Counted from the stretch's first letter, positions 16,863 to 41,443 are shown. The stretch is 64,000 nucleotides of DNA from Ignavibacteriaceae bacterium (GCA_023231105.1 JALNWB010000001.1:18276-82275); one strand, 5' to 3'. The notes: generated by a model not told the origin, from the sequence alone. A program made the numbers and translations.

Positions 16863-16897
16863 AAGTAGGAATTGTCAATTAGGAATTAGGAATTAAA
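16863..16897 (+). repeat. tandem heptamer array, AATTAGG type (5 units)
   Basis: The units are AAGTAGG AATTGTC AATTAGG AATTAGG AATTAAA. Confidence 0.85.
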
Positions 16898-16913
16898 ACC
16901 AAAGGAGAACAAT

Positions 16914-17210
16914 ATGGAAAATCTATTATGGCAAAAAGAAAAACCAAATTACGCTTGCGTATTCTTAACAAGATACAACGGCGAATATAATCTTTGGAAG
17001 TTCGTTTGGGAACCCGGAGAACCTCCCGAAACTGAACACGATGAAGAAAGTAGATATTATTATTTAGCGTGGACAGATAAAGACGGCGATACTTGGGATG
17101 ACATTGAAGAATGCACTTATGATGAATATCTCGTTTTAGAAAAACTTCCAACGATGGAACAAGTGCACGAACAGTACATTGAATCTTTAAAACAAAATAT
17201 TGATTACTGA
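16914..17210 (+). CDS. hypothetical protein
   Basis: AAAGGAG lies 7 nt upstream of the ATG. The gene follows an AATTAGG heptamer array. Confidence 0.5.
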   Translation: MENLLWQKEKPNYACVFLTRYNGEYNLWKFVWEPGEPPETEHDEESRYYYLAWTDKDGDTWDDIEECTYDEYLVLEKLPTMEQVHEQYIESLKQNIDY

Positions 17211-17222
17211 GAAGGAAGGATT

Positions 17223-17438
17223 ATGAAAGAAAATGGCAAATATTATCCTATAGAAAACGGATTAATCCCGTTAAAAGGTGGAAAGTGTTTTGAATATAAC
17301 TTACAAACCGAACTAACAAGAGAAAAATACCAACGTACTTTAGCAGCTACCATTATTTCGTCTTGCGAAATTATTTGCGAGAGAGACAATCCCATCCCTA
17401 CCCTTCCCCTTATCAAGGGGAAGGAGAATGAAAGTTGA
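17223..17438 (+). CDS. hypothetical protein whose C-terminus is encoded by a hairpin element
   Basis: GAAGGAAGGA precedes the ATG. The last roughly 15 codons (PIPTLPLIKGKENES) are read through the CCTTCCCCT/AGGGGAAGG hairpin, so the 3' end may be fortuitous. Confidence 0.35.
   Translation: MKENGKYYPIENGLIPLKGGKCFEYNLQTELTREKYQRTLAATIISSCEIICERDNPIPTLPLIKGKENES
17402..17424 (+). repeat. CCTTCCCCT-TATCA-AGGGGAAGG hairpin (family copy 1, inside ORF 17223-17438)
   Basis: A 9-bp perfect stem lies 18 nt upstream of late element copy A. Confidence 0.6.
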
Positions 17439-17476
17439 ATTTTCAACCCTTCGGAGAATAAATAAATAACTAAATC
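17436..17476 (+). promoter_or_regulatory. late regulatory element copy A (TTCAACCCTTCGGAGA-N12-CTAAAT)
   Basis: The core lies at 17442-17457 and CTAAAT at 17470-17475, 38 nt upstream of the portal ATG. Confidence 0.6.
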
Positions 17477-17513
17477 GGATTGTTAGTTTGTTAATATATA
17501 GGAACTCATCACA

Positions 17514-19313
17514 ATGAACATATTTTTAGACGAAAGCGCAAAAAATCCCAAAGATACCGAAGAACATGTACAAAGTACGGAGGAATTGTTAGACGGTATG
17601 ATGATGGATGAAGCGTTGCAAAAACGTTTGAACGAGCAAGGAAAATCGGGGGGAATAGTTTTACCGCTTGCGGAGGAGATGAATTCCGTATTACAAGAGA
17701 TTGAAGGTTTTAATTTTGAATATTCCGGACAGCAAAGGATCATCAATTGGGAGAACATGGATGTGCCGTACCGTGTATTAAGACGGGCAGGCAATACTGA
17801 AGCGGGAAGATTGGTGAAGAACCATCGGCGGCTTGGTTTGTCGCAATATGGAAGAGTCCCAAAGGCGGACGGGATACAAAGAGGCGGCAGGCTTATCTTT
17901 TGTGATCCAGATTATTCACCCACGAAAGATGAAAAGTTAAGGTTAAGAATTTGGGAAGATAAGATTTTTAAGAATTTCTTTTTCCCGGCAAACGATAGAT
18001 GGGCGAACTTTGCAAAGTTTATTGGGAACGCTTATGAGGATTGGTTTGATTATGATGACATAACTTGTGAGATTAGGCGTGACGGATTAGGCGACCCGAT
18101 AGCGATGCATTTGCAAGACCCGATTATTTATAAACCGGTTTTGAAGAAGAGCAGGGTTTATCCTAATTGGCGAGGCGAGGAAGACTATATGACACCTTAT
18201 CTTGAAGATTGGGAAACAATGGTAACAGGTAAACGGGCTTTTATTGGTGAGGATGAATTACCGGTAGAACCGGATTTTGTATTGCATTACAATAACATGC
18301 GATTAGGAGCAACAACGGATTATAACGTAAGAAAGTTCCACTTTTTTACCAGGAGCGATTTTAGGTTTACACAAAGAGGTTACGGGATAGTTGAACAATC
18401 TATTAACATTCTAACTTACATTATTAACGCGCTGAAGATGAACGCAAGTAATTTTATGAACAACAAATTACCCAAAGGATTCGTGCTATTCACCGGCGGC
18501 GGAATTGGAGCGCTTCAGCTAGAGAAATTGAAAAAGGTAATGAGCGCGTACATGGGCGGAACCGCGCCAAACCGTTTTCCGATAATGGGATTGAACAGCG
18601 AGAAAGGGGATGGGAAATGGGTAGGGATAGGCGGGAATAGTCGTGAGATGGAATATCATTTATGGATAACATTATTGTTTTCTATTTTTTGCCGGTTGAG
18701 TGGAACAGATCCGCGCGAAGTTAGTTTAGGCGCACACAGTGATGCAATTCGACCACAGAGTATAGGGGAAAAAAGCGCGGACGGAGTTGTAAACGAGAAT
18801 AGGGATATGGGTGAAAGAACTTTTCTTACGCATCTGAAAGATTCACTTAACGTTACGGATAAATACGGATTGAATTTATTTCAGCAGATCACTCAGATGA
18901 AAGTTGAGTTGGATTTTGCCGGGTTTGAAATTGAAGATAAGAAACTAAAGCAAGAAATAACAAAGTTGAATTTACAGACTTTCAAAAGCTTTAATGATGT
19001 TTTGGCAGAAGAGGACAAAGAGAAATACACGTTAATGATTGATGAGGAGACGAATCTTTTTGACATCCCCGGAGTAAATAGTGAAGTAATAAGATCTGCG
19101 GTTCAGTTTAAGATGCAATCTTTTTCAAATAAGCAAGCGGCAGAACAGCAGCAGCAGGCAGTTGGCAGTGATCAGTCGGCAGTAGGCAATGGTGAACAAG
19201 GACAGCCAGGAGGAGAGGAAGGGAGTGACGGATTAACTGAGGATGATAAGGCGCTAATTGAAAAATACAAAGGAGCTAGTAATGTTGAGATTGATAAGGA
19301 GTTGCAGCAATGA
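17514..19313 (+). CDS. portal protein (by size and position upstream of MuF-like gene)
   Basis: This 599-aa protein is the first gene after late element copy A. It is followed by a small ORF and then the MuF/SPP1-gp7-like gene, which is the usual portal-MuF arrangement. Its acidic Gln/Gly-rich C-terminal tail contains a CAGTCGG-type heptamer array. Confidence 0.7.
   Translation: MNIFLDESAKNPKDTEEHVQSTEELLDGMMMDEALQKRLNEQGKSGGIVLPLAEEMNSVLQEIEGFNFEYSGQQRIINWENMDVPYRVLRRAGNTEAGRLVKNHRRLGLSQYGRVPKADGIQRGGRLIFCDPDYSPTKDEKLRLRIWEDKIFKNFFFPANDRWANFAKFIGNAYEDWFDYDDITCEIRRDGLGDPIAMHLQDPIIYKPVLKKSRVYPNWRGEEDYMTPYLEDWETMVTGKRAFIGEDELPVEPDFVLHYNNMRLGATTDYNVRKFHFFTRSDFRFTQRGYGIVEQSINILTYIINALKMNASNFMNNKLPKGFVLFTGGGIGALQLEKLKKVMSAYMGGTAPNRFPIMGLNSEKGDGKWVGIGGNSREMEYHLWITLLFSIFCRLSGTDPREVSLGAHSDAIRPQSIGEKSADGVVNENRDMGERTFLTHLKDSLNVTDKYGLNLFQQITQMKVELDFAGFEIEDKKLKQEITKLNLQTFKSFNDVLAEEDKEKYTLMIDEETNLFDIPGVNSEVIRSAVQFKMQSFSNKQAAEQQQQAVGSDQSAVGNGEQGQPGGEEGSDGLTEDDKALIEKYKGASNVEIDKELQQ
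19152..19193 (+). repeat. tandem heptamer array, CAGTCGG type (6 units), inside the portal gene
   Basis: The units are CAGCAGG CAGTTGG CAGTGAT CAGTCGG CAGTAGG CAATGGT. They encode QQAVGSDQSAVGNG. Confidence 0.85.
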
Positions 19314-19597
19314 TAATTATTAAAATTTGGGGGCAGAAAGTTTTAGAAGTTGAAGGAATTGAAACAAAGGGAACGGTAAATAATTTTCATTATGCTAATT
19401 GCGTGTTTGGGCAGCCTATTGTTGCAACAATGAAGAGTGAGGGGGCAACGGCACAGCGAGAGGTTAAGAGAGAAACAATATCCGAAGAAAAATATCTTGA
19501 AATGGTTAAGAAAGTTTCGGATAAAACCGGTTTTAATGCAAGTGAAATAGAATGGATTTTACGTACAGCCGAAGGATATTTGGGAGGAGTTGAATAG
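19310..19597 (+). CDS. hypothetical protein
   Basis: It is coupled to the upstream gene by a 4-nt overlap. Confidence 0.5.
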   Translation: MIIIKIWGQKVLEVEGIETKGTVNNFHYANCVFGQPIVATMKSEGATAQREVKRETISEEKYLEMVKKVSDKTGFNASEIEWILRTAEGYLGGVE

Positions 19598-20649
19598 TGT
19601 TAATCTCACCGCTTGACGGAAAAATTCTGCATTTAAAAGAATTAGGAATGATTGAACAAATCCTTTTTGAAGAGGTTATTTCTCCCGAAGATTTTTACAA
19701 GGAACTAACATCATTTCTAAAGAAGAATTACGACCTTGATAGTAGGGCGATGTTTACCACACAGGAACTTGAGCAGGTTGATTCCTTTATTAAAAATTAC
19801 TTTACTACAAAAATAAACGAAGCGAAGGTTTGGCTTTTACGCGCGTATGTAATGGGGCGATATTTAGCGCATACCGATCTAACCGGGAACATCTTCAGAC
19901 TTGGGAATTTAAGCAGCTTACCAAAATATGTAACGGACGCGGCAAAGCAGTACGGACTTAGCATTGAGGAGGCAATGGCATTACAGCAGGCAGTAGAAGA
20001 AAGCGCCGTGCTGATGACTAACACAACGCAGAGCACCATCCAGACAGTACGTGAGGCACTTGTTGAAAACGTTAAGACACGAGGGGACGGGAAAAAGTTA
20101 ATTGGCAAGTTGCGGGAACTTTGCAAGGATGACGTGGGCGAAATTAATAGGAATTGGAAAAGGACAGCAATTACTGAAGCCAATTATATTTTTAATAACG
20201 GTTTTATATCAATGCAGGAAGAAGGCGCTTATGTTGTTGGACTAAGCATGCCGGATGCTTGCGGATTTTGTGCCGCTGAGATTAACGGGCAAGTTTTTAA
20301 AGTAAGAAAAGATATTCCGCCGGATTACACAACTATGAAGGGAGCGGAATATGAGAAGTGGGCGAAGGTTTGGGAAACTGAAATTTGGGTAGGTAAAAAT
20401 AATTACGGCAGAAGTACAAGCAATCGTAAACGGATTGATAAGCACAGAGGGAATAAGGAAGATAATTTGCGGGAGAAAGAACATCATGAACATTCGATGC
20501 CCGTTTGCCCGGCACACCCAGAATGTCATTGCAGATGGGTTGGTATTAAACCGGAGTTTATGTGGATTGACGAACATGGACAAATGAGGGCACGGGTTGA
20601 AGATGAAGATAAATGGCAAGAATGGTACGAGAATACAATTACGAATTAG
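19597..20649 (+). CDS. MuF / SPP1 gp7-like minor head protein
   Basis: NWKRTAITEANYIFNNGFISMQEEG matches the R.ARTE...A.N.G signature. The C-terminal HPECHCRW corresponds to the HPnCRC motif. A GTG start follows GGGAGGAG. Confidence 0.85.
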   Translation: MLISPLDGKILHLKELGMIEQILFEEVISPEDFYKELTSFLKKNYDLDSRAMFTTQELEQVDSFIKNYFTTKINEAKVWLLRAYVMGRYLAHTDLTGNIFRLGNLSSLPKYVTDAAKQYGLSIEEAMALQQAVEESAVLMTNTTQSTIQTVREALVENVKTRGDGKKLIGKLRELCKDDVGEINRNWKRTAITEANYIFNNGFISMQEEGAYVVGLSMPDACGFCAAEINGQVFKVRKDIPPDYTTMKGAEYEKWAKVWETEIWVGKNNYGRSTSNRKRIDKHRGNKEDNLREKEHHEHSMPVCPAHPECHCRWVGIKPEFMWIDEHGQMRARVEDEDKWQEWYENTITN

Positions 20650-20657
20650 GAATTAGG
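20635..20657 (+). repeat. tandem heptamer array, AATTAGG type
   Basis: The units are CAATTAC GAATTAG GAATTAG GA. The array contains the TAG stop of the MuF-like gene. Confidence 0.8.
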
Positions 20658-20667
20658 AGAAAACATT

Positions 20668-20853
20668 ATGAAAAATTTATTGAAGAAAGTTAAAGTGTTT
20701 TTTAAGGGGTTGTTCCCGAATATAGGGAAGGAAGTTAAACCGGTTGTGATTGAAGAGATTGTACCGAAGCTTGGACCAAAGAAGCGAAAAAGAATTGTTA
20801 AAAAGGTAAAGAGCGGAGCGCAAACGATTAATGAAAAGGGAAAAAGGAAATGA
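20668..20853 (+). CDS. small Lys-rich basic protein
   Basis: The sequence is MKNLLKKVKVFFKGLFPNIGKE...KKRKRIVKKVKSG. The N-terminus resembles the xFG leader motif seen in the polyvalent proteins. Confidence 0.4.
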   Translation: MKNLLKKVKVFFKGLFPNIGKEVKPVVIEEIVPKLGPKKRKRIVKKVKSGAQTINEKGKRK

Positions 20854-21581: not shown

Positions 21582-21594
21582 AAGGAACAAAGCA

Positions 21595-22047
21595 ATGGCG
21601 GATGGAAAAGACGAACTTACAAGAGAATTTAACAATGAATTCTTTAAAGCAGATTATAATGAGTTTAAGGAAGAGATTAGGAACAGTCATAATTTGATTA
21701 TGAAAAAACTTGAATCGTTTGATCTTATCTATATTGTGAATGGTGGTAGTGACGGTAAGGAAGTAGGCTGGAAGAGAAAAGATTTATTTCAGGTGCTTTA
21801 TGATAATGGAGTAAAAAAGACTAAAGCGATGGAAGAAAGTTTTAAGGCGGAAATAAAAAAAATAAGAGAAGAGCTTACAGACCATATGGATAGCGGGTTT
21901 AAGAGCGGGATAGGCAAGTTAAATTGGTGGAGTTCAAAGTTATTGCCGATAATAATTTTAGCTGGGGTGATCGTATCGATTATTCTTGTGCTGATAGGGC
22001 AGCATGAATTAGCGGAAAAAATACAGAGTATTACAAAAAGCAATTAG
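21595..22047 (+). CDS. tail-anchored membrane protein
   Basis: A single C-terminal TM segment (LLPIIILAGVIVSIILVLIG) follows a helical soluble domain. Confidence 0.5.
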   Translation: MADGKDELTREFNNEFFKADYNEFKEEIRNSHNLIMKKLESFDLIYIVNGGSDGKEVGWKRKDLFQVLYDNGVKKTKAMEESFKAEIKKIREELTDHMDSGFKSGIGKLNWWSSKLLPIIILAGVIVSIILVLIGQHELAEKIQSITKSN

Positions 22048-22055: not shown

Positions 22056-22057
22056 AA

Positions 22058-25000
22058 ATGTTTTTATATAAGTTACCGGATTATGAAGGGGGATTTGTTA
22101 CTAAATCTATTGAGTGCAATTGCATAGTAACAAGAGATGCAAACGGGCACTTGCTGGACAGTAAACCGGTTAATTGTGTAAAGAAGGGAGTGAAAACAAA
22201 TTTTGGAAAGGTTGTGGATTATTCGAAGAATTTTGTAATTCTGAAAAAAGGGACTGAGCTTAAAAGGGTGAAAAGGGAAGTTCTGAATAATATTTTGTTA
22301 AAGAGTTTGGAACAACCCGAGATAACTTTAGAAAAGATAAAGGTATCGGGAAAATTTAATACACTTGCGGGGAAAGTGTTGGTAAAAAGTGAAAGTGAAA
22401 TTGTTAGGGATGTATTAACTGATCCCGATAAAGTTTTGAGTAAGGGGAAAAGTGTTATTTTTTCTAAGACGATAAATGGGAAAGAGGTTGAGGCTAAGGT
22501 TGAGAAAACCTCAATGTTTATGAATACGTTTTTACATAAAAGTATAACCGTAAAGGAAAGTGTTGCGGCGAAAAGAATTTTAATAAAGGGAATTGCAACA
22601 ACGCTTAGAGCGCCGAAGGTGTTTAATATTCAGTCGGCAGTCGGCAGTAGGCAATCGACAATGGGTGGAACTGCATGGAACGCGAAAGGGGGAATGAAAC
22701 CGAATCATAAGTACATTGAACGGAAACCGGCGAAAAGTGGAGACGGGTATATTTATCTGTATGAACTCCCTTCCGGTAAAAAGGAATGGAGAGATGAAGC
22801 GGGAAAAGCTGTTGAGGGGGGACAGACGAGCGCCGATTATCAGTTGGAAGATTTTAAGGTGGGCGACATTGTTAGGCAGGATAATAAACTCGGCCGGATA
22901 ATGGAAGCATCAACAAATATGCTTGCGGTAAATTTCGGCGGGGAAATGAAGGTGATCAACAAAAAAGAGCATGTTGAAAAGGTTAAGCAGCATCAACTAA
23001 TGAAGGAAGGGGCCACGATGCAGTATGAGGGGAACGATGCAAAGATATTGAGGATAACCGGCAAAGCGGCATTGATAAACACGGCTGATAATAAGCTAAA
23101 GGTGATCAATCTTGAAAAGCAGTTGGAGAAATACGAACCGAAGAAAGAGGAGAAACGGTTAAATAAATACAGTGATGTTTACCAGGGTGAAGCGGAGCGA
23201 AGGATAGGGAGCGGGGGAGCGGATAATTACAACATCAGTTATGAAGAGCAGCCTAAGTATAAAAATTTTGTTGACGCGGCGAAGAAAACGGGATTTGGGA
23301 GAAAGAACGATCTTGAAATGGTGAAGCGCGTTGAAACGGAAAACGGGCTTAGAACGGTAAGGTGGAACTATAACCCGGAGGATCAGAATATTAGTTTTAT
23401 GGTTGACGGGAAAGAAGATTATACTATGAATTTTATGGGGAAGAAGTATAAAATAAGGGATATTACGGAAGACGGTTACAGTTTGGAAGATGCAGAAACT
23501 AAGGAACGGGGATTGTTCCTTTCTCACAAAGATTATAATAATGATTTGAAACAACAAAGAGACGAGGAGAGAAAGAATGTTGTAGTTGAAAGAACGGGAG
23601 GGGTGAACGGATTTGAAACGGTTAAAGAACCGGCGCGAACTTTTAGGTTTAAACCGGAATACAGTGATGAAGAAAAAGAAAGGTTTGAGAAACGAGGGGG
23701 AAGAAGACCGAGCCGATGGACGCGAAGAAAAGATGAACCTTTGCAAAGCGAAGAGGAGAAGAAACGATTAACTGAATTGCAGGACGAGAGGGATAAAAAG
23801 AATAAGGAAGTTTTGGGAACGAAGGATTTTGCAGACTTTGAGAAGTTACACAAAGAGAGAGGCTTTACAATTGGTGCAAATAGATTCCATGCAGCAAAAG
23901 AAATTGAGGCAGGCGGAAGAACATTCAGAATAAAGAGTGAGTTTAAGCCGGAGAAAATGAGCTGGCAGACTTCCATCGATGGACCTGTTAAGAAATTGCA
24001 GTTGGGAGAAAAACATTTACCGATAACGGATATTTCAAAAGATAAAGTTTTCTACCACGAAGGGGGGGATGAAAAAAGTATAACCTTTGATGAGTTGAAA
24101 ACGATTAACGGCAAGAGTTTGTTTGAACCCACAAAAGAGAGTAAAGGAATTGTAAGTAATTTAGATCCGGTGAAGATATATTTTGACGATAAAGATGTAA
24201 CGAGCGGGACTTATGAAATTGTTGAAGCTAATGAAATAATTGCTTCCCACAAAACGGATGGAACGCCAAACAGAGATTACACGATATCAGACGCGCAAAA
24301 TAGAGACCGCAGCACTCCGCAAAGTATTGCACAAATAAACAAGATCGCAGCGAATCCGAATTTTGACTTTTTAAGCGACAGTAAGACCGCGCAGGACGGC
24401 GCACCCATTGTTGATGAAGATTATAACGTAATTGCCGGGAACGGGCGGGGAATAGGCGTACAGCTTCATTACAGCAACAAAGGGGAGAAGTATCGAAATG
24501 ATCTGTTGAAAAAGGTTGAGAAGTACGGTTTTAGTCGAGACGATGTTGAGAAGATGAAACAGCCTATTTTGGTAAGGCGAACGAATGTTGACGCAAAAGA
24601 GGCGCAACGATTGGGAGCAATTAGCAATACCTCACAGATGCTTGCAACAGAGGAACGGGAAGCGGCAAAAGGAAAGGCAACAAGAATTGATGACGCTACA
24701 ATAAATAATTTAGCCGATATGTTCACAAAAGGGAACCATGAATCACTTAATCAATATTTGGATGAGATTGGACCGGATGTGGTAGGTGAGTTACTGAAGA
24801 AGAAAATTATCCCGGAGAATGAAGCGCACTTGTATATTGACCCGAAGAGCGGGAAAATGGATGCAGGGCACAAAGAAAAGGTTAAGCAAATATTAACGCA
24901 ATCGGTTTTGGGAGAGAGCAGTAAGCATTTTGAGAAGATACCGGAAGCGGCGAGAGCGGGAACGGTTAAAAGTCTTGGAGATATTTTTGCGCTGAAGGGG

Positions 25001-27722: not shown

Positions 27723-27760
27723 AAGTGGTTAGTAGTAATGTGTGACTAACCACTTTTTTA
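27723..27760 (+). terminator. intrinsic terminator
   Basis: An 11-bp stem (AAGTGGTTAGT/ACTAACCACTT) is followed by TTTTTT. Confidence 0.75.
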
Positions 27761-27773
27761 ATTACGAATTCTC

Positions 27774-27794
27774 AATTAGGAATGAGGAATTATG
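27774..27794 (+). repeat. tandem heptamer array, AATTAGG type (3 units)
   Basis: The units are AATTAGG AATGAGG AATTATG. The last unit contains the ATG of the DPPY methylase. Confidence 0.8.
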
Positions 27795-28424
27795 CTTAGC
27801 GAAGCTTTTAATATTGATTGTATGGAAGGGATGAAACAGTTCCCCGATAAGTATTTTGAATTAGCTGTGGTTGACCCGCCGTATGGTTTGCCCAAAGATG
27901 CTGTACACGGTAGAGGCAAGCTAAAGGCGAGAGCAATAAATGCAATGGATATGGGATGGGATGTTGCCCCAAACGAAGATTATTTTAAAGAATTGTTTAG
28001 AGTTTCTGAAAAACAAATTATTTGGGGTGGAAATTATTTTGCGCTTATGCCTACAAGGTGTTGGTTAATTTGGGATAAAGAACAGCCTTTTGAAAATTTT
28101 AGCGCGTTTGAAATGGCTTGGACTTCTTTCGAGTCTCCGTCGAAAATTTACAGGCAAAGGACGGTTGAACCCGATCCAGATGGGAAAATCCATCCGACAC
28201 AAAAAACAATTAAACTTTACGATTGGATATTTATGAACTACGCAAAGCAAGGGGATAAGATTTTAGACACGCATTTAGGGAGTGGAAGCAGTAGAATATC
28301 AGCACACAAAGCTGGGCTTGATTTTACAGCGTACGAATTAGATAAAGATTATTTCGACAAACAGGAGAAACGCTTCAACAACTTTATTTCGCAATTGCAA
28401 TTAGATTTTGCGATTGCAATATAA
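27792..28424 (+). CDS. DNA N6-adenine-type methyltransferase (DPPY motif IV, small N6_N4_Mtase)
   Basis: Motif IV is FELAVVDPPYG and motif I is ILDTHLGSGSSRISAHKAGLDFTAYELD. Confidence 0.85.
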   Translation: MLSEAFNIDCMEGMKQFPDKYFELAVVDPPYGLPKDAVHGRGKLKARAINAMDMGWDVAPNEDYFKELFRVSEKQIIWGGNYFALMPTRCWLIWDKEQPFENFSAFEMAWTSFESPSKIYRQRTVEPDPDGKIHPTQKTIKLYDWIFMNYAKQGDKILDTHLGSGSSRISAHKAGLDFTAYELDKDYFDKQEKRFNNFISQLQLDFAIAI

Positions 28425-28436
28425 TTAGGAATAGGA

Positions 28437-28556
28437 ATGAACGGCAGGATGAGAATAGGCGAAGCTAGGTTTAGTTACTGGACAAATAGAGAGAGAAAAG
28501 AAGTTGCCGGGAATGAAGATCAATTTAATTTATTCACCCAGACCGAGGCAGCGTAA
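28437..28556 (+). CDS. possible small ORF (39 aa) coupled to the DarB-like gene
   Basis: The ATG follows TAGGAATAGGA, and the stop overlaps the next start (TAATG). It carries no motif. Confidence 0.25.
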   Translation: MNGRMRIGEARFSYWTNRERKEVAGNEDQFNLFTQTEAA

Positions 28557-31500
28557 TGAAATTATTTGGAATGACAATAGCAAAGAGTAAAGATAAACCG
28601 AAATTGCTTAAAGCATTCGGGGTAATATTAAAAGCCTTCGGTACGCAGTTAGGAATGTTTAATGATGAAGTGATTGAAGGGCAGACGAAGCAGAAAGACG
28701 GGCACAGCTATGTAGTTAAGAGAAGTAACAAGAATCCTCTTGTAAAAAGATTATTCAGGGCGGATAAGGAGGAGAGTAAGCCGAAGGAACTGAGTTTGTT
28801 TGATAAGAAAGTTACAGTAGGCAGTCGGCAATCGGCAGTCGGCAATCGGGCAGAAAGTAAACCACCGAAAGCGGAACCAATAAGACACACAGAGCAACCG
28901 GAAGCAAAGGACGATCTCTTCAATCAACCAAAGGAAGAGAGAAAAGAGCCGAAGGCAGAAATTAAAGTTGTTAAGGGGAAGAAAAACCGTAAAGAGATTA
29001 ACGCTAAGGTTGAGGAGTTATTAAAGACAAAGAAAAATGATGAGATGAGCGCTGAGGATGTTGAATTATTAGCGCAGTACACCGGACGCGGCGGATTGTT
29101 AGGAGATACGCTTGAGGATATCTCGCTTAATGAATTTTACACACGTAAGGATGAAGCGGAATTTATTTGGGATATGATAGGGAAGTTAGGTTTTAAGGGA
29201 GGAAATGTTTTAGAGCCTTCGATGGGAACGGGAATTTTTGTTGAGACAGCACCGGAGAAAGCGCTTGTAACCGGAATTGAGATTGAGGAGACGAGTGGAA
29301 GAATCGGACAGATTTTACACGGCAATGAACACGATATCAGAATTCAGAGTTTTGAACAGTTTGTAAAAGACTATGATAATATGGGAGCGGATTTAGAAGG
29401 GGGAGAATATGACGCGATAGTTGGGAATTGTCCGTTTGGTAAAAGGGGATTGAGCGCAATGGATGATAGGGAAAAGAGCGATATAAAATTCCATGAGCAA
29501 TATTTTATTGATCGAGGTTTGGATATGTTGAAGCCGGGGGGGATAATGGCAATGATCGTTCCAACAAGTATAATGGATAACCAACTTAATCAATGGCGGG
29601 GAGAGGTAAACAAAAAAGGGGAATTTTTAGGAGCAATACGAGTACCAACCGGAGCATTCAAACACACAGACGCGCAAGTAACCACAGATATAGTTTTCTT
29701 TAAGAAAAGACCGCCGGAAGTAATTGATCACTTGAACAAACTTTCCAAGGAAGAACTTGGGGAAGCTTATGACGATATGGTAATGGATGCTGATTTTGTT
29801 TCGGGGAATTTCTTTAAGAATAATCCGGAGTATGCATTGGGCACGGAAACAAGCGGAATGTTCGGAATGAAGATTTGGAAGGGAGATATTACAAAGGCTG
29901 ATCTTGAAAAAGTCGGTGAGTTATTAAACCATGAGGCAAGAGATTACAGCAGTTTAGGAATTGATGTTAGTAAATATGGTGAGTTAGAAAAAGAACTTGA
30001 ACCGGGAGATGTAAAGATATTAAACGGAAGAACTTACATACTTAATAAAAACCATAGATGGGAAAGATTGAAAGATCAGGAAGTAGTATTACAAAACTTA
30101 CCGGAAGACATTAAAAAACTTGGTATTACGAGTTGGGATGAATGGAGAATTAAGAGTGAGGACACAGCTTATTTATACGGTTTGGATAAGGACCAACTTA
30201 AACTTTTCGGACAAACAAGAATAGTTAATGAGCTGGATGGATACAACGGCAAGAATGATTTTCAGACGGAATATTTAACAAAGGGAGTTGTGTTAGGTTT
30301 AGCAGTAAAGGATTTCAGAAAAGAGTTGCAAGACGGAAGATTATCCGCTGAAGAGGCGCAAATGGAAGCGGGGAAACTGAAGATATTGCTAAAGGATTTT
30401 ATTGAAAAGTATGGACACCCGATTGAGAATTTAAAGTTAAATAAATTTTTTAAGAACAGCGGAAACGCGCCACTTCTTAATTTGGCAGGTAGCTATGATA
30501 AGAACGGCAACACTATCAAGATGTTTGATGATCCGCTGTCTTTTTATAAAGTTTATCAAACGAAGAGCGAAATAGGAACAGTTGATAGGAATAATATTGT
30601 TTCGGTAATCGGTTTTCTTTTTGCAAATAATTTTCCAACGGATTATCAAACGGTACGAGGCGAGTATGAGGGGGATGGAGATATTGAAAGAGAGCTTGCA
30701 TATAGCGATGAAATTTATTTTGATGAAGAAGGAAATTATAAACCGAAAGAGGAAGTCCTTTACGGTTACATTTACGAAAAAATTGACGCTTGGGAAAAGC
30801 AACGAACCGAACTGAAGAAGGAATCCAAGAACGAAAAGTTAAGCGATAAAGAAAAAGAACTTAACGCGCAAAAAATGCGAAAGCTCGAAGATCAGATAAT
30901 TGAGGCGAAGACGAGAGCGAATATCAGGGAGATTAAGCAGCTACCAATAATGTTAAGCGATGCAGGGAGTATTTACGATATTGGTATTTTAAACAAATAT
31001 TTGGAAGAAAAGATAGGGGCGCATTTCTTAGGTGAATTACGCAAAGATGAAAAGAGTGGTTTCATTCTTCCGGTTGATGAGAGTTCGGCAAAATTATATT
31101 TAAGTTATGCAGATATTACGAAAGAGGGGAAATCAACAGATGTAAAACGGGAATTGCGGGATCTCTTTAATAAAGATGAGCATCCGTTGTTATTTATGAT
31201 TTTAAATAAGATGAATGGATTAGGTTTACCGGCATTACGGACAGAGGAAGGGATTGCTAAGAAAGAACAAGTCTTACAACTTGAAACAGATTTTAAGCAG
31301 TATTTATCCGATAGTGAAGAAGCTGATAAAATTGCAGATACTTATAACAGGTTGTTTAATTCTTACATACAAAAAACGTATGATGAAAAACCGATAGAGG
31401 GAATAAAGCATTTTGCTTATGATAGAGTAGTTGGAAAAGACGCAAGCGGAAAAGATATAACCGGAAAAGATAAGGCGGGCGGGCATACTTGGGCAACGGT

Positions 31501-34500: not shown

Positions 34501-34672
34501 TAATTATAATATAAGACAACAAGATAAACACGGCGATTATTGGCTTGAATCCGGGAAGATAACACCCGAGATGTTAGATAGGGCGCGGGCAATTGATGAG
34601 ATAAAGAGTGATGACAACAAAGATTTATTAGAGGATATACTTACAAATAAACTAAGAGGAGAAGCGGCATAA
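28556..34672 (+). CDS. polyvalent protein 2 (2038 aa): DarB-like N6-adenine methyltransferase plus SNF2/DEAH helicase
   Basis: MTase motif I is VLEPSMGTGIF and motif IV-like is AIVGNCPFGKRG. The helicase motifs are GVGLGKTLEAL (I), LVRDEAHDTKN (II), GLTATPISNSPLE (III) and QIEQGNGRGIRQGN (VI). This architecture matches phage P1 DarB. Confidence 0.9.
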   Translation: MKLFGMTIAKSKDKPKLLKAFGVILKAFGTQLGMFNDEVIEGQTKQKDGHSYVVKRSNKNPLVKRLFRADKEESKPKELSLFDKKVTVGSRQSAVGNRAESKPPKAEPIRHTEQPEAKDDLFNQPKEERKEPKAEIKVVKGKKNRKEINAKVEELLKTKKNDEMSAEDVELLAQYTGRGGLLGDTLEDISLNEFYTRKDEAEFIWDMIGKLGFKGGNVLEPSMGTGIFVETAPEKALVTGIEIEETSGRIGQILHGNEHDIRIQSFEQFVKDYDNMGADLEGGEYDAIVGNCPFGKRGLSAMDDREKSDIKFHEQYFIDRGLDMLKPGGIMAMIVPTSIMDNQLNQWRGEVNKKGEFLGAIRVPTGAFKHTDAQVTTDIVFFKKRPPEVIDHLNKLSKEELGEAYDDMVMDADFVSGNFFKNNPEYALGTETSGMFGMKIWKGDITKADLEKVGELLNHEARDYSSLGIDVSKYGELEKELEPGDVKILNGRTYILNKNHRWERLKDQEVVLQNLPEDIKKLGITSWDEWRIKSEDTAYLYGLDKDQLKLFGQTRIVNELDGYNGKNDFQTEYLTKGVVLGLAVKDFRKELQDGRLSAEEAQMEAGKLKILLKDFIEKYGHPIENLKLNKFFKNSGNAPLLNLAGSYDKNGNTIKMFDDPLSFYKVYQTKSEIGTVDRNNIVSVIGFLFANNFPTDYQTVRGEYEGDGDIERELAYSDEIYFDEEGNYKPKEEVLYGYIYEKIDAWEKQRTELKKESKNEKLSDKEKELNAQKMRKLEDQIIEAKTRANIREIKQLPIMLSDAGSIYDIGILNKYLEEKIGAHFLGELRKDEKSGFILPVDESSAKLYLSYADITKEGKSTDVKRELRDLFNKDEHPLLFMILNKMNGLGLPALRTEEGIAKKEQVLQLETDFKQYLSDSEEADKIADTYNRLFNSYIQKTYDEKPIEGIKHFAYDRVVGKDASGKDITGKDKAGGHTWATVRRMYEQGKGMIAHGVGLGKTLEALTLTLLSKETGRANKPCIVSPKSVLLNWVAEIEKWTHGVNYLLVGYSKKNESEGWTEENTIEDSREVKELKLQRAANEDFDMILMSRDLFGTIDFSPETKKNMLNELMDKYYPEGNRLSTFSDGDSKYAKNVKKKRDTLLRNLSEMMDIPEPLGGVYLDNIGIDMLVRDEAHDTKNLLVPMESEISGVNSSTSQRAMHNLFASKIIRGQNNDMGYFGLTATPISNSPLEVFNMMVPFAEKELEKLQVQNMDDFVSRFADIDNIPTTSADGRVIVKNKFSGWKSAEALRNTFFRFVDYKTKDDVESVKANIKFPKEKAANVLSDLNEGQKEIVKHCKLRLWMLSSRVFDKDNKTWDFNADKLQEKVGEGLISQDEATEVLNYFNDEYLPKYEALNARLGPDDTPNDDHFFKVQQDLIKATSDLPWYKDKHSEYSKEVDDDLVKQHSDLKKFAQLNESALSIHKSGGKQIIFAINTALHEKIKNDLVKSGIPENEIVIVNGKTVSSSSKRLQISKAYNDGKYKVVIGNYATMGEGLNFNYMTSDIHHLQPAWNHLQIEQGNGRGIRQGNPLDSVNTHYYLTKGSIDGFMNTKIMDKAGMVDKFLKGETSRWDDEVQLEADEMMIELADNPEQAKALLAFRNKKLQDALAEQQRQSNYKQLDRLYEVKRKKSGMAEKTSKQYQMMEQEERSLTEKLIEANFEHKGKLDYDRTPVILPGINKVIPVGGILEGKSGEFYVVEDYAPSTQRVKIRTYKAGTQGDMVGTRAISAKELDKEFNALHKETDLDLGGMFKKIIDDNEEVGINFISKIPKEILQINKVKLLEKLNNTDEVLYQTMDGDFKVADYESAKDEIATEGGKIIFPQEKPEFPKILNELIKLHKPKQNWGEGYYQFRKYKNFATSIYGENYENAIKKEIKRLNGEATETSFAIHTTGAKYKKTLKDLADNGYMNDYTYKRIMQGKAYDELSEFSNALRAEFFDNYNIRQQDKHGDYWLESGKITPEMLDRARAIDEIKSDDNKDLLEDILTNKLRGEAA
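28815..28849 (+). repeat. tandem heptamer array, CAGTCGG type (5 units), inside polyvalent protein 2
   Basis: The units are CAGTAGG CAGTCGG CAATCGG CAGTCGG CAATCGG. They encode VGSRQSAVGNR. Confidence 0.9.
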
Positions 34673-35046
34673 TGGAACTAAAAGAAAAAACAATTGAGGA
34701 TAGCAGCAAGTCATTTGTGGATAAATTCAAATGGGAGGGGATGAGTGAAGAAGGATATAAACAAGCGAATACCGCCCTAGCTGATTATAACAAAAAAATG
34801 TGTGACGAAATTGATTTCTCAGAAGCGGGGAATGGATTCCCAAGAATAATATTAGGTGATATTGAGTTTATGGTTCTCCCCTACCACAGAATAAAGCATT
34901 TTGCAACTGACCATGGTACTGCCGGAACAATTGGTTTTGGTAGTGGGAAATATTTATTAAAAGAGTGTACACTGATGCCCGCAATTTGTGACCCGGAATG
35001 TAATTTTGCAATTGCTCCAGCACAAAAGAAAATAGAGGAGAAATAG
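34672..35046 (+). CDS. hypothetical protein
   Basis: It is coupled to the upstream gene (TAATG). Confidence 0.5.
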   Translation: MELKEKTIEDSSKSFVDKFKWEGMSEEGYKQANTALADYNKKMCDEIDFSEAGNGFPRIILGDIEFMVLPYHRIKHFATDHGTAGTIGFGSGKYLLKECTLMPAICDPECNFAIAPAQKKIEEK

Positions 35047-35500: not shown

Positions 35501-35983
35501 ATGGAAGTGTGTGACGTAGACGAGGAAGTGTTAGAAAAGTTAATAAAAGAATTTACTGATGAATTTGGTGAAGAAGTGCTTAAGGAGGTTTACCGATTTC
35601 ACCGGAAATTAGCTAATAAAATGTATGTGAAGAATTTTCCGGCAGCGGAAATTTATCATAGACTTTTGATTAAAGATATCCGCAATGGTAAGTATGCAAA
35701 TATGAGTGTACGTGCAATTGCGGCGATTGAAAAGGTTAGTGAAGGTACGATCTATAACATTATCGGGAAAGCGTGTAGAGTTAAGAAACCGATTTATCAA
35801 TACTCGGTTAGGGGTAAATTAATAAAGAAATGGAACAGCGGAACGGAAATAGAAAAAGAATTGGGCTATAATGCAAGTCCAATACGGGCAAGCTGTAGAG
35901 AGGGGAACGATAGAGCGACTTATGGTTTTGTTTGGAGATACCAGGAGCTAACGGGAGAAGAACTTTTGGCAATTAGGAATTAG
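35501..35983 (+). CDS. DNA-binding protein: HTH plus NUMOD1-like module, no nuclease domain (candidate transcription regulator)
   Basis: MSVRAIAAIEKVSEGTIYNIIGKA is an HTH resembling sigma region 4 or resolvase. PIYQYSVRGKLIKKWNSGTEIEKELGYNASPIRASCREGNDRATYGFVWRY matches the NUMOD1-type DNA-binding module of homing endonucleases. Confidence 0.5.
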   Translation: MEVCDVDEEVLEKLIKEFTDEFGEEVLKEVYRFHRKLANKMYVKNFPAAEIYHRLLIKDIRNGKYANMSVRAIAAIEKVSEGTIYNIIGKACRVKKPIYQYSVRGKLIKKWNSGTEIEKELGYNASPIRASCREGNDRATYGFVWRYQELTGEELLAIRN

Positions 35984-35984
35984 G
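35971..35984 (+). repeat. heptamer pair, AATTAGG type
   Basis: The units are AATTAGG AATTAGG. The pair contains the TAG stop of the gene at 35501. Confidence 0.75.
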
Positions 35985-36026
35985 ATAAAGTTTACATTAT
36001 TTTTACAAGATAAAAAGGAGCTTCAA

Positions 36027-36314
36027 ATGAGTTATACTAAAATTTCACTATTTGGGGAAAGAAAAGGCGTTGGAACTTTTGAGACCTTTTTCAACACGGG
36101 CAAATACAAATCTATTGATGAGGCAATAAAAATAAATGATTATGTAATAGTAGACTTTGTAAAAGATGATAAGGGCATAATTTATTTTGAGATAAAACAT
36201 TCACAACGCCAAAACGAAAGCATATATCACCGCCTTAATATACAGAGACCAATATGTGGAATTGATGTGTCTGATGATGTTGTTTGTTGTGAAATTGTGG
36301 AAACTTTATTATAA
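36027..36314 (+). CDS. hypothetical protein
   Basis: AAAAGGAG lies 7 nt upstream of the ATG. Confidence 0.5.
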   Translation: MSYTKISLFGERKGVGTFETFFNTGKYKSIDEAIKINDYVIVDFVKDDKGIIYFEIKHSQRQNESIYHRLNIQRPICGIDVSDDVVCCEIVETLL

Positions 36315-36332
36315 AAGTGTAAAGTTTTGGGG

Positions 36333-36375
36333 TTACATATTTTTCTTACATAATATTTTACATATTCTGCATATG
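36333..36375 (+). repeat. three TTACATA direct repeats at 12-13-nt spacing plus a TGCATATG near-palindrome (core CATATG)
   Basis: TTACATA occurs at 36333, 36346 and 36358, in the gap between the gene at 36027 and the terminator at 36383. Confidence 0.6.
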
Positions 36376-36382
36376 TTTTTGG

Positions 36383-36420
36383 AACCTCCGGAGTGAAAGC
36401 TTCGGGGGTTTTTAGTTTTT
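36383..36420 (+). terminator. intrinsic terminator
   Basis: The stem AACCTCCGGAG/CTTCGGGGGTT (two G-U pairs) is followed by TTTTAGTTTTT. Confidence 0.7.
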
Positions 36421-36440
36421 AAAGCGACCTCATCCCATTT

Positions 36441-36463
36441 CCCTCTCCTTGCGAAGGAGAGGG
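36441..36463 (+). repeat. CCCTCTCCTT-GCG-AAGGAGAGGG hairpin element (family copy 2)
   Basis: A perfect 10-bp stem is preceded by CGACCTCATCCC and lies 50 nt upstream of late element copy B. Confidence 0.7.
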
Positions 36464-36507
36464 TTGGATATTATTTAACACATAAAAGAACCAACCTATT
36501 AACAATC

Positions 36508-36549
36508 TTCAAATTTCAACCCTTCGGAGAAAATCGCATTCCTTAAATA
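36508..36549 (+). promoter_or_regulatory. late regulatory element copy B
   Basis: The core lies at 36515-36530 and TTAAAT at 36543-36548, upstream of the protease-scaffold gene. Confidence 0.6.
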
Positions 36550-36574
36550 TGCAATAAAAAAAGAGTGAACAATT

Positions 36575-37951: not shown

Positions 37952-38019
37952 GAAAATGTTAATACATAAGAAAAATTAACAAGTAACTTTTAATAATATA
38001 AAAAATTGGAGTAAATAAA

Positions 38020-39453: not shown

Positions 39454-39477
39454 CGGATTAACAAACAAACAAATTTC

Positions 39478-39513
39478 TATTCCCCTCTTCCGTTTATGCG
39501 GCGGAGGGGAATA
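39478..39513 (+). terminator. large hairpin after the major capsid gene (possible terminator or RNA-stability element)
   Basis: A 10-bp stem (TATTCCCCTC/GAGGGGAATA) contains an inner CCG/CGG stem. No U-run follows, so termination activity is uncertain. Confidence 0.4.
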
Positions 39514-39539
39514 AATTAAAACACATCAGAGGCTAAAAA

Positions 39540-39971
39540 ATGGTTAAGCATACATACCTTAAAAATTTAACGTTAAATGTACCAACTTCCGTTAACAGTA
39601 CGGGCAAACTTCACTTGGATGAAGACGGTTGTATAGTTGAGGAATTGAGTTTTGAGCAAGAGAGCGAATTGATTGATCACCCGGATTTTGTTACAGTAGA
39701 AAGTGAAAAGTCGCAAGTAGAAAGCAAAGAGTTGCAATCCGCCGAAGGCGGAGAAAGTAACGATCAAGAGAACAACCAAGAGCAAGAAGAAAAAACCGCA
39801 GAGCAAGAGAGCGGAGAAAATTCTGAAGGGAAAGCCGGGGAACAATCCGAAGACGAACTAAAAGAATTGGATACTAAAATTGTAAACGGGAAAGGGTTCA
39901 TCTACAAGAAAAACGTGAAAGATGTTTTGATGTGGTTACGGCATCCAGAGCTTGATGAAAAGGGTAAATAA
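39540..39971 (+). CDS. hypothetical highly acidic protein
   Basis: A low-complexity tract is present (ESEKSQVESKELQSAEGGESNDQENNQEQEEKTAEQESGENSEGKAGEQSEDE). Confidence 0.5.
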   Translation: MVKHTYLKNLTLNVPTSVNSTGKLHLDEDGCIVEELSFEQESELIDHPDFVTVESEKSQVESKELQSAEGGESNDQENNQEQEEKTAEQESGENSEGKAGEQSEDELKELDTKIVNGKGFIYKKNVKDVLMWLRHPELDEKGK

Positions 39972-40331
39972 ATGTTGGTAATAGAAGTGTTGATTTATCT
40001 TGCCGCTGTTTTTTTGTTGACGGCGTTTGGAGCGTTACTTTATATTGTATTGACTAATCCGTACAGAGATAAATTATTAAAAAGATTAGATACAATGTTA
40101 TGCGAGAAAGACGGTTTTTGGAGTAGTACCCGTTTCAGATTTCTCTTGGAAACACTTATTGCTAACGCATCATTTTGGGGATTGGTAATTTATCTAACCA
40201 TAAAGAACAGCAAATTTCCCAACATCCCGGAAAGCATTTTAATTGCTTACGGAGGCATACAGATAATTTCAGCAGTATTAAAATTTAAACAGAAAACCGT
40301 TGAGACGGAAGAACCGGCAGAAGAGAAGTAG
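39972..40331 (+). CDS. small membrane protein (3 predicted TM helices)
   Basis: The predicted helices are VLIYLAAVFLLTAFGALLYIVL, ANASFWGLVIYLTI and ILIAYGGIQIISAVL. Confidence 0.5.
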   Translation: MLVIEVLIYLAAVFLLTAFGALLYIVLTNPYRDKLLKRLDTMLCEKDGFWSSTRFRFLLETLIANASFWGLVIYLTIKNSKFPNIPESILIAYGGIQIISAVLKFKQKTVETEEPAEEK

Positions 40332-40340
40332 AGATGTGCA

Positions 40341-41417
40341 ATGAAGACAATAAAAAAAGGGATTTCACAACTTATAACCCTTGATCAGACATTATTAGGC
40401 AGCGGAAAACACGTTTACTTGACGATGATCGGTGAAGACGGTTCGGTGATTAAAAACTCTTCAGCGGCAGATATAAAAGATTTATCACTTTCCTACAACG
40501 CAACTTCATCTCTCTATGAAGCAGCCGTAACTGTAGCCTCGGATGAGCCGGAACAATATGTCCGGCTCTTCTTTTATGCTACAGACGCGAACGTAGAGAA
40601 TAAATATTATCCGGAAGATGCAAAATTGGAAGCAGTAGCCGGCATAATTACAACCGAGGCTGAAATTGTACCGGTACAGTTTTTTATTGATTATGTTCTG
40701 GCTTCTTCAAGCAGATTAGACCCGGCGTATGAAGCGGCGATAACGGCTTTTTCGGAGGATAGAGCGGGATTAAGAAGTTACTTAAAGAGCGCACAAGATA
40801 CTCTTGAAAAACAATGCGAGCTTTATTTTACCGAACGGACAAAGACCGAGAACCGTGATAATTATTTTGAAAAATTCAGTATGAATCTTTGGCAAATACA
40901 AGTTTATAACCCACCAATAAATGATTTAACAAGTGTAAAGATAAAGTACGGCAATACCGAGTTAATGGGTATTGGTGTTGATCTTTTTACGTTTGACCGC
41001 ATGACGGGAATAATTGAATTTTTACCTTTACCAACTGGTGGAACAGCAGGGCTTTATACTTTGCTGTTAGGCAGTTTAAGCGCGTTGGGTTTATCTGTTT
41101 TAACCGGCGGAGCGCTGGAACGGATACCAAACTTTTTTGAGGTAACGTACAAAACGGGGTTAGTTTATGCAGGCGCAGACCCGTTTGAAGTTGAAGGGAT
41201 AAGACAGGCTATTTGCCGCAGAGCATTCCTAAGTTTGGTCCATCATGTAGATCCCGCGGCAAGAGTAGTTAGCGAAAGTGAAAGCATTGACGGAGTTGCA
41301 AGCAGTATTAGTTCGGGAGTTGCTAAGGTAATTACCGAACTGAAACAGGACGAAGTAAGTTATTTAAACGGTTTGCGGCAGAAGTACGGGAAGAACTTTA
41401 ATGTAGTTATCGGGTAA
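40341..41417 (+). CDS. virion structural protein (head-completion/neck candidate, by position)
   Basis: The ORF sits in the head module and has no recognisable motif. Confidence 0.45.
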   Translation: MKTIKKGISQLITLDQTLLGSGKHVYLTMIGEDGSVIKNSSAADIKDLSLSYNATSSLYEAAVTVASDEPEQYVRLFFYATDANVENKYYPEDAKLEAVAGIITTEAEIVPVQFFIDYVLASSSRLDPAYEAAITAFSEDRAGLRSYLKSAQDTLEKQCELYFTERTKTENRDNYFEKFSMNLWQIQVYNPPINDLTSVKIKYGNTELMGIGVDLFTFDRMTGIIEFLPLPTGGTAGLYTLLLGSLSALGLSVLTGGALERIPNFFEVTYKTGLVYAGADPFEVEGIRQAICRRAFLSLVHHVDPAARVVSESESIDGVASSISSGVAKVITELKQDEVSYLNGLRQKYGKNFNVVIG

Positions 41418-41443
41418 TTAGGAATTAGGAATTAGGAATAAAC
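41416..41443 (+). repeat. tandem heptamer array, AATTAGG type (3 perfect units plus 1 degenerate)
   Basis: The units are AATTAGG AATTAGG AATTAGG AATAAAC. The array starts inside the TAA stop of the gene at 40341. Confidence 0.9.

Follow-up and report, generated by a model that had tools for sequence, protein, structure and literature searches.

Tandem AATTAGG arrays at gene junctions of a large prophage, read as a heptanucleotide repeat family of the host lineage

The stretch of DNA analyzed here (henceforth, the window) spans 64,000 nucleotides (nt) of contig C1 in the metagenome-assembled genome of an Ignavibacteriaceae bacterium (G000:C1:18276-82275; G000 comprises 4.19 Mb in 307 contigs, with 36.8% GC). 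The window is part of a ~100-kb prophage of a large temperate phage. Its gene junctions carry six tandem arrays of the heptamer AATTAGG, made of 2-5 units, plus one degenerate copy, and all of them are found on the + strand. On balance, we lean towards the view that these arrays are lineage-typical heptanucleotide simple-sequence repeats (SSRs), akin to the short tandemly repeated repetitive (STRR) sequences of cyanobacteria, and that they represent the commonest family of this type in the host genus and its temperate phages. A dedicated phage device with multiple Shine-Dalgarno (SD) registers or standby sites is not the best reading. The traits shared with STRR-like repeats are a 7-nt unit repeated head to tail, presence at many unlinked loci, patchy spread among lineages, a mostly non-coding location and variation in unit number.

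Heptamer arrays in the prophage, the host genus and other viruses

A preliminary description of the window had listed six array positions, and all six were found on the + strand; the position given as 27774 turned out to be the third unit of the array 27760-27794. Two degenerate copies had been proposed as well. The copy at 28423-28439 is real, while the one at 52959-52970 is a single unit acting as an ordinary AGGA SD and cannot be counted.

The same description had left open whether the motif exceeds chance expectation. The double unit AATTAGGAATTAGG, searched in the window with up to two mismatches, gave 10 matches versus 1.6 expected, and none of 100 dinucleotide-preserving shuffles reached 10 or more. 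Because the lone AATTAGG heptamer occurs at its expected frequency (19 copies versus 17), the signal is the tandem arrangement. Tandem Repeats Finder (TRF) describes the arrays of the window with period 7 and 2.1-4.3 copies each. The frequency of the lone heptamer, together with a purine content of 0.59 in the prophage sense strand, might suggest that the arrays arose by chance or as a compositional artefact, given a coding strand rich in A+T and in purines. This explanation is refuted by the shuffles and controls: aside from the excess of double units in the window, counts in the genome and the genus exceed those of the controls 10- to 50-fold, and perfect arrays of 4-10 units are found in viral contigs. 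Its probability is practically nil.

A whole-genome count of tandem AATTAGG, proposed in the preliminary description, yielded figures far above control both in G000 and in the genus. The G000 host genome contains 47 double-unit matches (with one mismatch at most) versus 3 for the reversed control, and a separate scan of G000 detected 46 arrays across 38 contigs. Besides those described above, ~37 loci of G000 carry such arrays. AATTAGG is mixed with AATTACG in them; AATGAGG, AATTGAG and AATTAAA are rarer variants. The seven other genomes of the genus were all positive (28-149 matches, controls 1-7). In the 11 other genera of the family that were sampled, the double-unit pattern did not exceed background, and a 3-unit scan detected no arrays in 12 further genomes of the family. 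Across the class (301 genomes, 136 genera), the 3-unit scan was positive in 66 genomes and 30 genera, distributed over many families, with controls near zero. In the TRF listing of the host genome, period 7 is the commonest (404 rows, compared with 201 for period 6 and 276 for period 8), and AATTAGG ranks first among the units. The earlier comparison with STRR sequences is therefore apt in the sense that AATTAGG forms a genome-wide heptamer family of the host lineage, though the host is not a cyanobacterium.

Other small repeats accompany AATTAGG. Among the seven other genomes of the genus, six contain 4-24 matches to a second heptamer, CAGTCGG (control 0), which is absent from neighbouring genera. 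The mini-hairpin TCCGCCnnnGGCGGA often adjoins or interrupts the arrays, with ~60 sites in G000. Exact copies of the mini-hairpin are present in every genome of the genus (4-39 copies, control 0) as well as in a few other genera (52 in G010 and 28 in G025). The mini-hairpin, which has the relatives TCAGCC..GGCTGA and TACGCC..GGCGTA, is often found in tandem, beside or inside heptamer arrays and in coding regions.

Perfect AATTAGG arrays of at least four units were also detected in unrelated viral contigs of IMG/VR, in 21 stretches on 17 contigs whose GC content ranges from 27 to 70%. Most of them are in sense orientation and abut the stop codon of the upstream open reading frame (ORF), and as many as 10 perfect units can be found. 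Six contigs with 59-70% GC (L161, L157, L149, L152, L151 and L148) harbor perfect AATTAGG x4-6 between genes. An AT-rich array in viral contigs of 59-70% GC cannot be a compositional by-product. As yardsticks, we used heptamers chosen with the composition of AATTAGG: GGATTAA was found in 9 stretches and AATTGAG, itself a variant unit of these arrays, in 34, compared with 21 for AATTAGG. The idea that AATTAGG is a uniquely cosmopolitan unit is thus unsupported; the comparable counts indicate that many-unit heptamer arrays are common and that AATTAGG is not unique among them.

The prophage and its host were characterized by gene content. The left end of contig C1 carries tRNA-Leu and tRNA-Val genes followed, on the minus strand, by a tyrosine integrase gene and a serine-recombinase-like gene; this left end, with tRNA-Leu(taa), tRNA-Val(gac) and the two recombinase genes, corresponds to G000:C1:20-345 and 417-2430. 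The integrase region is followed by ~100 kb of genes almost exclusively on the + strand, and host genes (molybdopterin oxidoreductase, NrfD, FadL, proline dehydrogenase, YceG) appear from ~105 kb onwards. Products encoded in the window include a major head protein (phrog_752), a portal, a head protease, terminase-like ATPases and DNA methylases. No DNA-level match to known phages was found in the phage collection searched, and the major capsid protein is only ~27% identical to those of SPO1-like and Bacteroides phages. The photosynthetic reaction centre family Photo_RC was not found in the host genome. Among named records, the host RpoC is closest to Ca. Kapaibacterium (64%) and then to Chlorobiales (56%), and C-terminal sorting domains of the type IX secretion system (T9SS; Por_Secre_tail) are encoded. 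These three observations rule out a cyanobacterial host, and we infer that the host is an Ignavibacteria/Kapabacteria-like member of the Bacteroidota-Chlorobi group.

Arrays of AATTACG and AATTAGG are also found in frame within the T9SS sorting domains of G000, where they encode NYELGIRNYEL before SGVYFYQL; the mini-hairpin can occupy the same spot, likewise in frame (SAKGG). The gain or loss of a single unit would put the secretion signal out of frame, and phase-variable secretion is therefore conceivable.

Table 1. Location of heptamer arrays and accompanying features. Positions without prefix are counted from the first nucleotide of the window; unit numbers at a junction refer to the window and its relatives.
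Feature	Position	Strand	Remarks
Array AAGTAGG AATTGTC AATTAGG AATTAGG AATTAAA	16863-16897	+	5 units, 2 perfect; after stop of gene 16543-16845; separate AAGGAG SD serves ATG 16914
Array AATTACG AATTAGG AATTAGG A	20637-20658	+	Supplies codons ITN and TAG stop of gene 19597-20649; last AGGAG is SD (-13) of ATG 20668; junction units 3, 3, 5 or 0
Array AATTAGG AATTAAA	22042-22055	+	AGGA at -12 of ATG 22058 (1698-aa gene); junction units 2, 3, 1 or 1
Array AATTACG AATTCTC AATTAGG AATGAGG AATTATG	27760-27794	+	ATG of 27792-28424 inside last unit; junction units 5, 4.5 or 4, arrays of relatives fused to a different downstream gene
Degenerate array AATTAGG AATAGG AATG	28423-28439	+	Overlaps methylase TAA; holds ATG of 39-aa ORF 28437-28555
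Array AATTAGG AATTAGG A	35971-35985	+	2 units; supplies codons IRN and TAG stop of gene 35501-35983; next gene 36027-36314 (95 aa); junction units 2, 3, 4 or ~4.5
Array AATTAGG x3 + AAT	41416-41439	+	3.4 perfect units; AGGA at -10 of TTG 41444; junction units 3, 4, 5 or 4
Lone AGGAATT unit before ATG 52972	52959-52970	+	Ordinary SD, no array
Other heptamer array (TAGAAAG)n	15483-15505	+	Between TAG stop 15482-15484 and ATG 15516
15-nt mini-hairpin TCCGCCAGAGGCGGA	16847-16861	+	Directly 5' of 16863 array
Terminator-like hairpin GTGGTTAGT...ACTAACCAC + T6	27725-27759	+	Directly 5' of 27760 array; read from sequence
N6/N4 DNA methylase gene, PF01555, accessory	27792-28424	+	Arrays on both flanks; absent or replaced in related phages
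43-aa ORF, TTG start	41444-41575	+	Begins 4 nt past 41416 array
CAGTCGG arrays	22631-22657, 28815-28849, 44396-44452		Inside giant prophage genes (1698, 2038, 1342 aa)
Indel	16845-16891		Starts at array
Indel	27790-28443		Array-bracketed DNA methylase gene replaced in relatives
Indel	35985-36306		95-aa gene absent in L010/L013
Indel	41439-41567		43-aa ORF absent in L010/L013; array joined directly to TTG of next gene
In-frame T9SS arrays, G000	C8:22584-22611, C37:22842-22869, C50:11366-11393, C70:3078-3105, C118:10562-10589, C54:15687-15700
Loci with inverted heptamer arms	L140 (G001:C177:3900-4900), L142 (G001:C109:800-1400), L141 (G007:C24:1800-2900)

Length, unit and presence at orthologous junctions

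Related viral contigs, with 82-88% identity in the portal and 88-96% in the major capsid protein, retain arrays at matching junctions, always on the coding strand and with 0-7 units (Table 1). More distant phages (59% and 49% portal identity) showed no arrays. At the 20637 junction, an AAGTAGC/AAGTGGA tract takes the place of the array in two relatives (L095 and L097), which retain the terminal AGGA as well as the spacer and the ATG. The unit itself can be replaced: at the junction after 15484, where the window has (TAGAAAG)n, L098 carries AATTAGG x4 and L096 carries AATTAGG x7 in front of the same downstream gene. A purine-rich AAAGTGG heptamer is found at the 16863 junction in L098. The recurring feature is a heptamer array at the junction rather than one particular unit.

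The arrays of the window lie between ORFs, and changes in unit number leave both neighbouring ORFs intact. The location typical of contingency loci (phase-variable SSRs), with the repeat inside an ORF or a promoter spacer where a change in units turns the gene on or off, is not observed for them.

Arrays at host junctions were compared in G000 and G001, two host species with ~84% nucleotide identity, at 13 resolvable loci. Seven loci have an array in both species, and the remaining six show clean presence/absence differences. In one of these, TAA-AAG-[38-nt array]-GTTATG in one species corresponds to TAACGTTATG before the same gene in the other. A 60-nt indel made of an array and an inverted array also distinguishes the host species (L117), and a mini-hairpin is inserted within an array at another locus (L116). 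Arrays are therefore long-lived at some host sites and dispensable at others, and both their length and their unit are variable.

Within the view that the arrays are SSRs of the lineage, replication slippage or unequal recombination would generate and resize them, and an unknown small-repeat mechanism might contribute to their seeding or movement. Their stop content would confine them to cistron boundaries and 3' ends. With three or more pure AATTAGG units, each sense frame contains a TAG and each antisense frame a TAA (from CCTAATT); because of these stops in all six frames, a pure array cannot lie within any ORF and is restricted to DNA outside reading frames.

Several indels between phage relatives begin exactly at an array (Table 1). 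At least one relative had a breakpoint at 5 of 7 array junctions and at 20 of 48 other junctions (Fisher P=0.14, or 0.08 without locus-end artefacts). A post-hoc cut at three or more relatives gave P=0.003, and an earlier test with a single relative gave P=0.01. As only the post-hoc cut is significant in the comparison across relatives, the proposal that arrays are statistically enriched as synteny breakpoints was rejected. The phage family is very mosaic. Altogether, the case for arrays as recombination joints is suggestive only; for small accessory genes, they probably provide convenient joints for gain and loss.

The 124-aa gene 34672-35046 corresponds to a gap (34690-35024) in three related phages, and the flanking alignments overlap by ~45 nt. 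This arrangement suggests that the gene was lost by deletion between short direct repeats.

Stop, start and Shine-Dalgarno signals

Genes were called with a crude longest-ORF procedure. The triplets AAT TAG inside an array terminate the genes 19597-20649 (product ending in ...ITN), 21595-22047 (...KSN) and 35501-35983 (...IRN), and the TAA of gene 40341-41417 overlaps the first AA of its array. The stops that the preliminary description had attributed to the arrays, three in AAT TAG and one in an overlapping TAA, agree with these ORF translations. On the downstream side, the distances from array to start codon at the seven junctions are, in order, 16, 9, 2, 0, 0, 41 and 4 nt, so that six of the seven starts lie at 16 nt or less. 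The ATG codons at 27792 and 28437 (the latter belonging to the 39-aa ORF) are built from the last unit. With gene starts 0-41 nt past the arrays, the next start is often close, and the last unit of the 27760 array includes the ATG at 27792; both points agree with the preliminary description.

The two small ORFs that begin at arrays, 28437-28555 (39 aa) and 41444-41575 (43 aa), overlap the start of the next gene (TAATG and ATGTTAA, respectively). The 39-aa ORF is conserved in related phages with 88-92% DNA identity; the 43-aa ORF is present in L011 and L012.

The 3' tail of the host 16S rRNA (CCTCCTTT / GGATCACCTCCTTT) can pair with AGGA, and each array unit offers this 4-nt complementarity. 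Usage of SD sequences in the host is shown by an AGGA peak at -12 to -10 and a GGAG peak at -9. Thirteen of the 23 phage arrays supply an AGGA at -14 to -8 relative to the following start codon, compared with only 5 of 33 host arrays. An ORF starts within 20 nt of 16 of the 23 phage arrays, and the start is frequently formed from a truncated unit (AATG, AATTATG, AATTG).

These figures are also those expected from a dedicated translation element, in which a C-free, unstructured tract with one AGGA every 7 nt would serve both ribosome recruitment, as a multi-register SD or a standby site, and translational insulation between cistrons in three frames. Under this hypothesis, the arrays would be under positive selection in dense phage operons, and unit number would tune expression. 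The sense bias and the prophage enrichment described below favour the hypothesis too, as does a predicted minimum free energy of 0.0 for (AAUUAGG)n with 2-7 units, that is, no predicted structure. In their context, however, the arrays are not unusually unpaired (0.51-0.76, compared with 0.58 +/- 0.13 for ordinary upstream regions), so that special RNA accessibility is ruled out. The window gave no match to Rfam families. Further difficulties are that arrays 16863 and 35971 are followed by separate AAGGAG SDs, that array-less relatives keep the SD, the spacer and the ATG, and that orthologous host genes can lack the array (the gene after L119 is an example). The SD and start kept by such array-less junctions argue indirectly against a need for extra units in the expression of the downstream gene. 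Moreover, in the host, a start is close to only 9 of 33 arrays, many others precede terminators or follow a tRNA, and arrays are missing from other genera that use SDs in the same way. We thus consider a dedicated translation element unlikely, if worthy of attention. The earlier proposal of multi-register SDs holds for the terminal unit, given the SD usage of the host and the AGGA spacing in phage arrays. It is less convincing as a dedicated device for the reasons above, to which one can add that other heptamers can substitute for AATTAGG and that host arrays favour stops over starts.

As an SSR family, the arrays may instead be used passively. Translation of an upstream gene would end at whichever TAG comes first in its frame; the SD window of the host would take in the last AGGA, located 7 nt before a start in or just after the last unit; and the AAT of a truncated unit would often become part of an ATG or TTG. 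We infer that the arrays are junction filler co-opted for stop, SD and start signals.

The orientation and placement of arrays bear on both hypotheses. In co-directional contexts, the ratio of sense to antisense arrays is 17:2 in two host genomes (P=0.0007) and 23:0 in phages, where the sites are partly orthologous and hence not independent counts. Of 33 host arrays, 22 overlap a sense-ORF stop or follow it at 40 nt or less. Recurrent offsets from the stop are -1 (T followed by AATTAGG) and +10 (A ATT AGG AAT TAG), and several arrays of the host are located before a terminator hairpin or after a tRNA. All phage arrays are at junctions, and 19 of 21 arrays of G001 are intergenic. Loose 2-unit matches of G000 are found within ORFs in half of the cases; these are mostly AATTACG-rich and lack a sense-strand stop.

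Part of this evidence weighs against a family of plain repeats shaped by drift. Intergenic arrays are ~15-fold denser in the prophage than in the host (8 of 22 in 2.4% of the genome, P=3e-8), an enrichment that pure mutational drift does not predict. Strand composition is an insufficient source of the sense bias in the host, where the purine content of intergenic DNA on the sense strand is only 0.518; since composition fails to explain the host bias, some selection or strand-specific mechanism must act. The fact that AATTAGG recurs in remote genera, and in viral contigs spanning 27-70% GC, points to more sequence specificity than random slippage, with the caveat that the yardstick heptamers are comparably frequent. 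In addition, the clean insertion of a whole array at an orthologue devoid of a seed is hard to obtain by slippage alone. Pure drift leaves the sense bias, the prophage enrichment, the distant recurrence and the seedless whole-array insertions unexplained.

Possible protein binding or stem-loop elements, and known heptamer repeats

Strict 7-nt phasing and the recurrence of one unit across dozens of loci and remote genera could also reflect binding sites for a multimeric protein. The ligand could be an RNA-binding protein of the CsrA, S1 or cold-shock type, or a DNA-binding protein polymerizing on heptads, like the ribbon-helix-helix protein omega; the arrays would then mark a regulon specific to the lineage and joined by the phage. 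The omega repressor of plasmid pSM19035 binds contiguous WATCACW heptads at promoters, which serve as its operator. AATTAGG arrays resemble such operator/centromere arrays, with contiguous 7-bp units that can be direct or inverted, and differ from them in lying within operons, at cistron boundaries rather than promoters. Every unit contains GGA and the host encodes CsrA; CsrA was, however, discarded as an array-specific factor, since 23 of 31 relatives encode it independently of arrays. The analogous TAACTGA repeats have been proposed to bind S1, Csp or CsrA (PMC4679880). Against protein binding are also the location inside operons, the occupation of AATTAGG junctions by different heptamers, the clean presence/absence differences at housekeeping junctions, and the failure to find a co-varying candidate protein, as neither Y1_Tnp nor PF05635 (the two tested) tracks the arrays. 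This explanation seems improbable to us. The Y1 transposase of RAYT/IS200 type was also rejected as the driver of array spread: it is multi-copy across the order, and the array-rich G003 has only a weak match.

Heptamers also form the arms of larger structures in the genus. In G001 (contig C177), AATTAGG x4 and its inverted copy bracket a gene of the PF05635 family (23S_rRNA_IVP, Avd-like; Pfam E=1.4e-22), and the same inverted arms bracket a 70-nt gene-less insert in contig C109. In G007 (contig C24), arms of CAGTCGG type bracket another PF05635 gene, and five PF05635 genes of G000 are flanked by other inverted arms with units of ~7 nt. At G000 C40:13079-13551, a frameshifted PF05635 gene is located between TGAATGG/CCATTCA arms; G001 has an AATTAGG array there.

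The arrays could accordingly be linked to a small insertion element of stem-loop type, whose activity spreads heptamers, and represent its solo arms, its footprints or its landing pads. The inverted arms just described are as this hypothesis would have them, and so are the indel of array plus inverted array between host species (L117) and the mini-hairpin inserted inside an array (L116). The phage data are at odds with it: hmmsearch detected nine PF05635 copies in the host genome and none in contig C1 or in related phage loci, and no inverted partner was found for the arrays of the window or of related phages, all of which are solo and on the + strand. In the host, only a minority of arrays have an inverted partner, and PF05635 copy number was discarded as a correlate because it does not track AATTAGG arrays across relatives; PF05635, like Y1 transposases and CsrA, is widespread in the order. 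The arrays of the prophage resemble intervening-sequence (IVS)-type stem-loops with PF05635 genes in their heptamer units, and differ in lacking both the inverted partner and the gene. We regard this explanation as doubtful, with a low probability similar to that of protein binding. A broader formulation, to which we grant a slim chance, invokes a hitherto unrecognised mobile system of very small size, with solo arrays as its footprints or landing pads. The system would be made of stem-loops with heptamer arms that optionally carry a PF05635/Avd-like four-helix-bundle gene. If true, such a system would explain the over-representation of heptamers in bacteria, the units shared by host and phage, and the existence of ready-made joints for accessory genes.

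Tandem heptamer repeats, known since 1990, are over-represented in the genomes of many bacteria, and neither their origin nor their function is understood. AATTAGG arrays belong in this known, still unexplained class of bacterial repeat. STRR heptanucleotides were reportedly described in heterocystous cyanobacteria by Mazel and colleagues in 1990 (cited in PMC4692102). Like AATTAGG, they are said to form several heptamer families per genome, dispersed, mainly intergenic and lineage-typical. Differences are that our host is non-photosynthetic and that its arrays are shorter (2-7 units), use other units and are present in phage genomes.

The closest analogue is provided by the TAACTGA repeats of marine Beggiatoaceae, some cyanobacteria and Bacteroidetes (MacGregor 2015, PMC4679880). 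Both repeats have a 7-nt unit in 2-6 head-to-tail copies, with sets 'split' by related heptamers, and both are mostly intergenic, forward-oriented, endowed with stop codons in the unit and patchy in distribution. TAACTGA repeats have a forward, start-proximal layout: the largest class ends 1 nt before the start, and some overlap the end of the upstream ORF, as observed here. AATTAGG is, however, an analogue and not a member of that family. Its unit is AATTAGG/AATTACG; its host arrays follow stops more than they precede starts; and it is common to, and enriched in, a prophage and its relatives. In addition, TAACTGA lacks complementarity to the anti-SD and its junctions mostly lack a ribosome-binding site (PMC4679880), whereas AATTAGG carries AGGA in an SD-using genome.

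Among bacterial SSRs, heptamers are over-represented; they lie nearer to where the upstream ORF ends, and related genomes differ in the length of their arrays; polymerase slippage was hypothesized by Mrazek et al. 2007 (as reported in PMC4692102). The GGGAATC and GGGGA(C/T)T repeats of Xanthomonas and Nostoc (Rehm et al. 2015, PMC4692102), ~90% of which are intergenic, share with AATTAGG arrays the proximity to the upstream ORF end. They are G-rich, G-quadruplex-capable and devoid of strand preference, while AATTAGG is C-free, unstructured and strongly sense-biased.

The arrays have consequences for annotation, as the stops, SDs and starts that they supply matter for gene calling; the small ORFs at 28437 and 41444 illustrate this point. 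Orthologous junctions constitute a natural series of 0-7 units that includes heptamer replacement, and arrays bracket accessory genes such as that of a DNA methylase. If the arrays are recombination joints or protein-binding sites, part of phage mosaicism would be explained; otherwise, their value is mainly descriptive. In either case, a temperate phage family and its host genus have heptamer families in common, and the repeat can help to link uncultured phages to their hosts.

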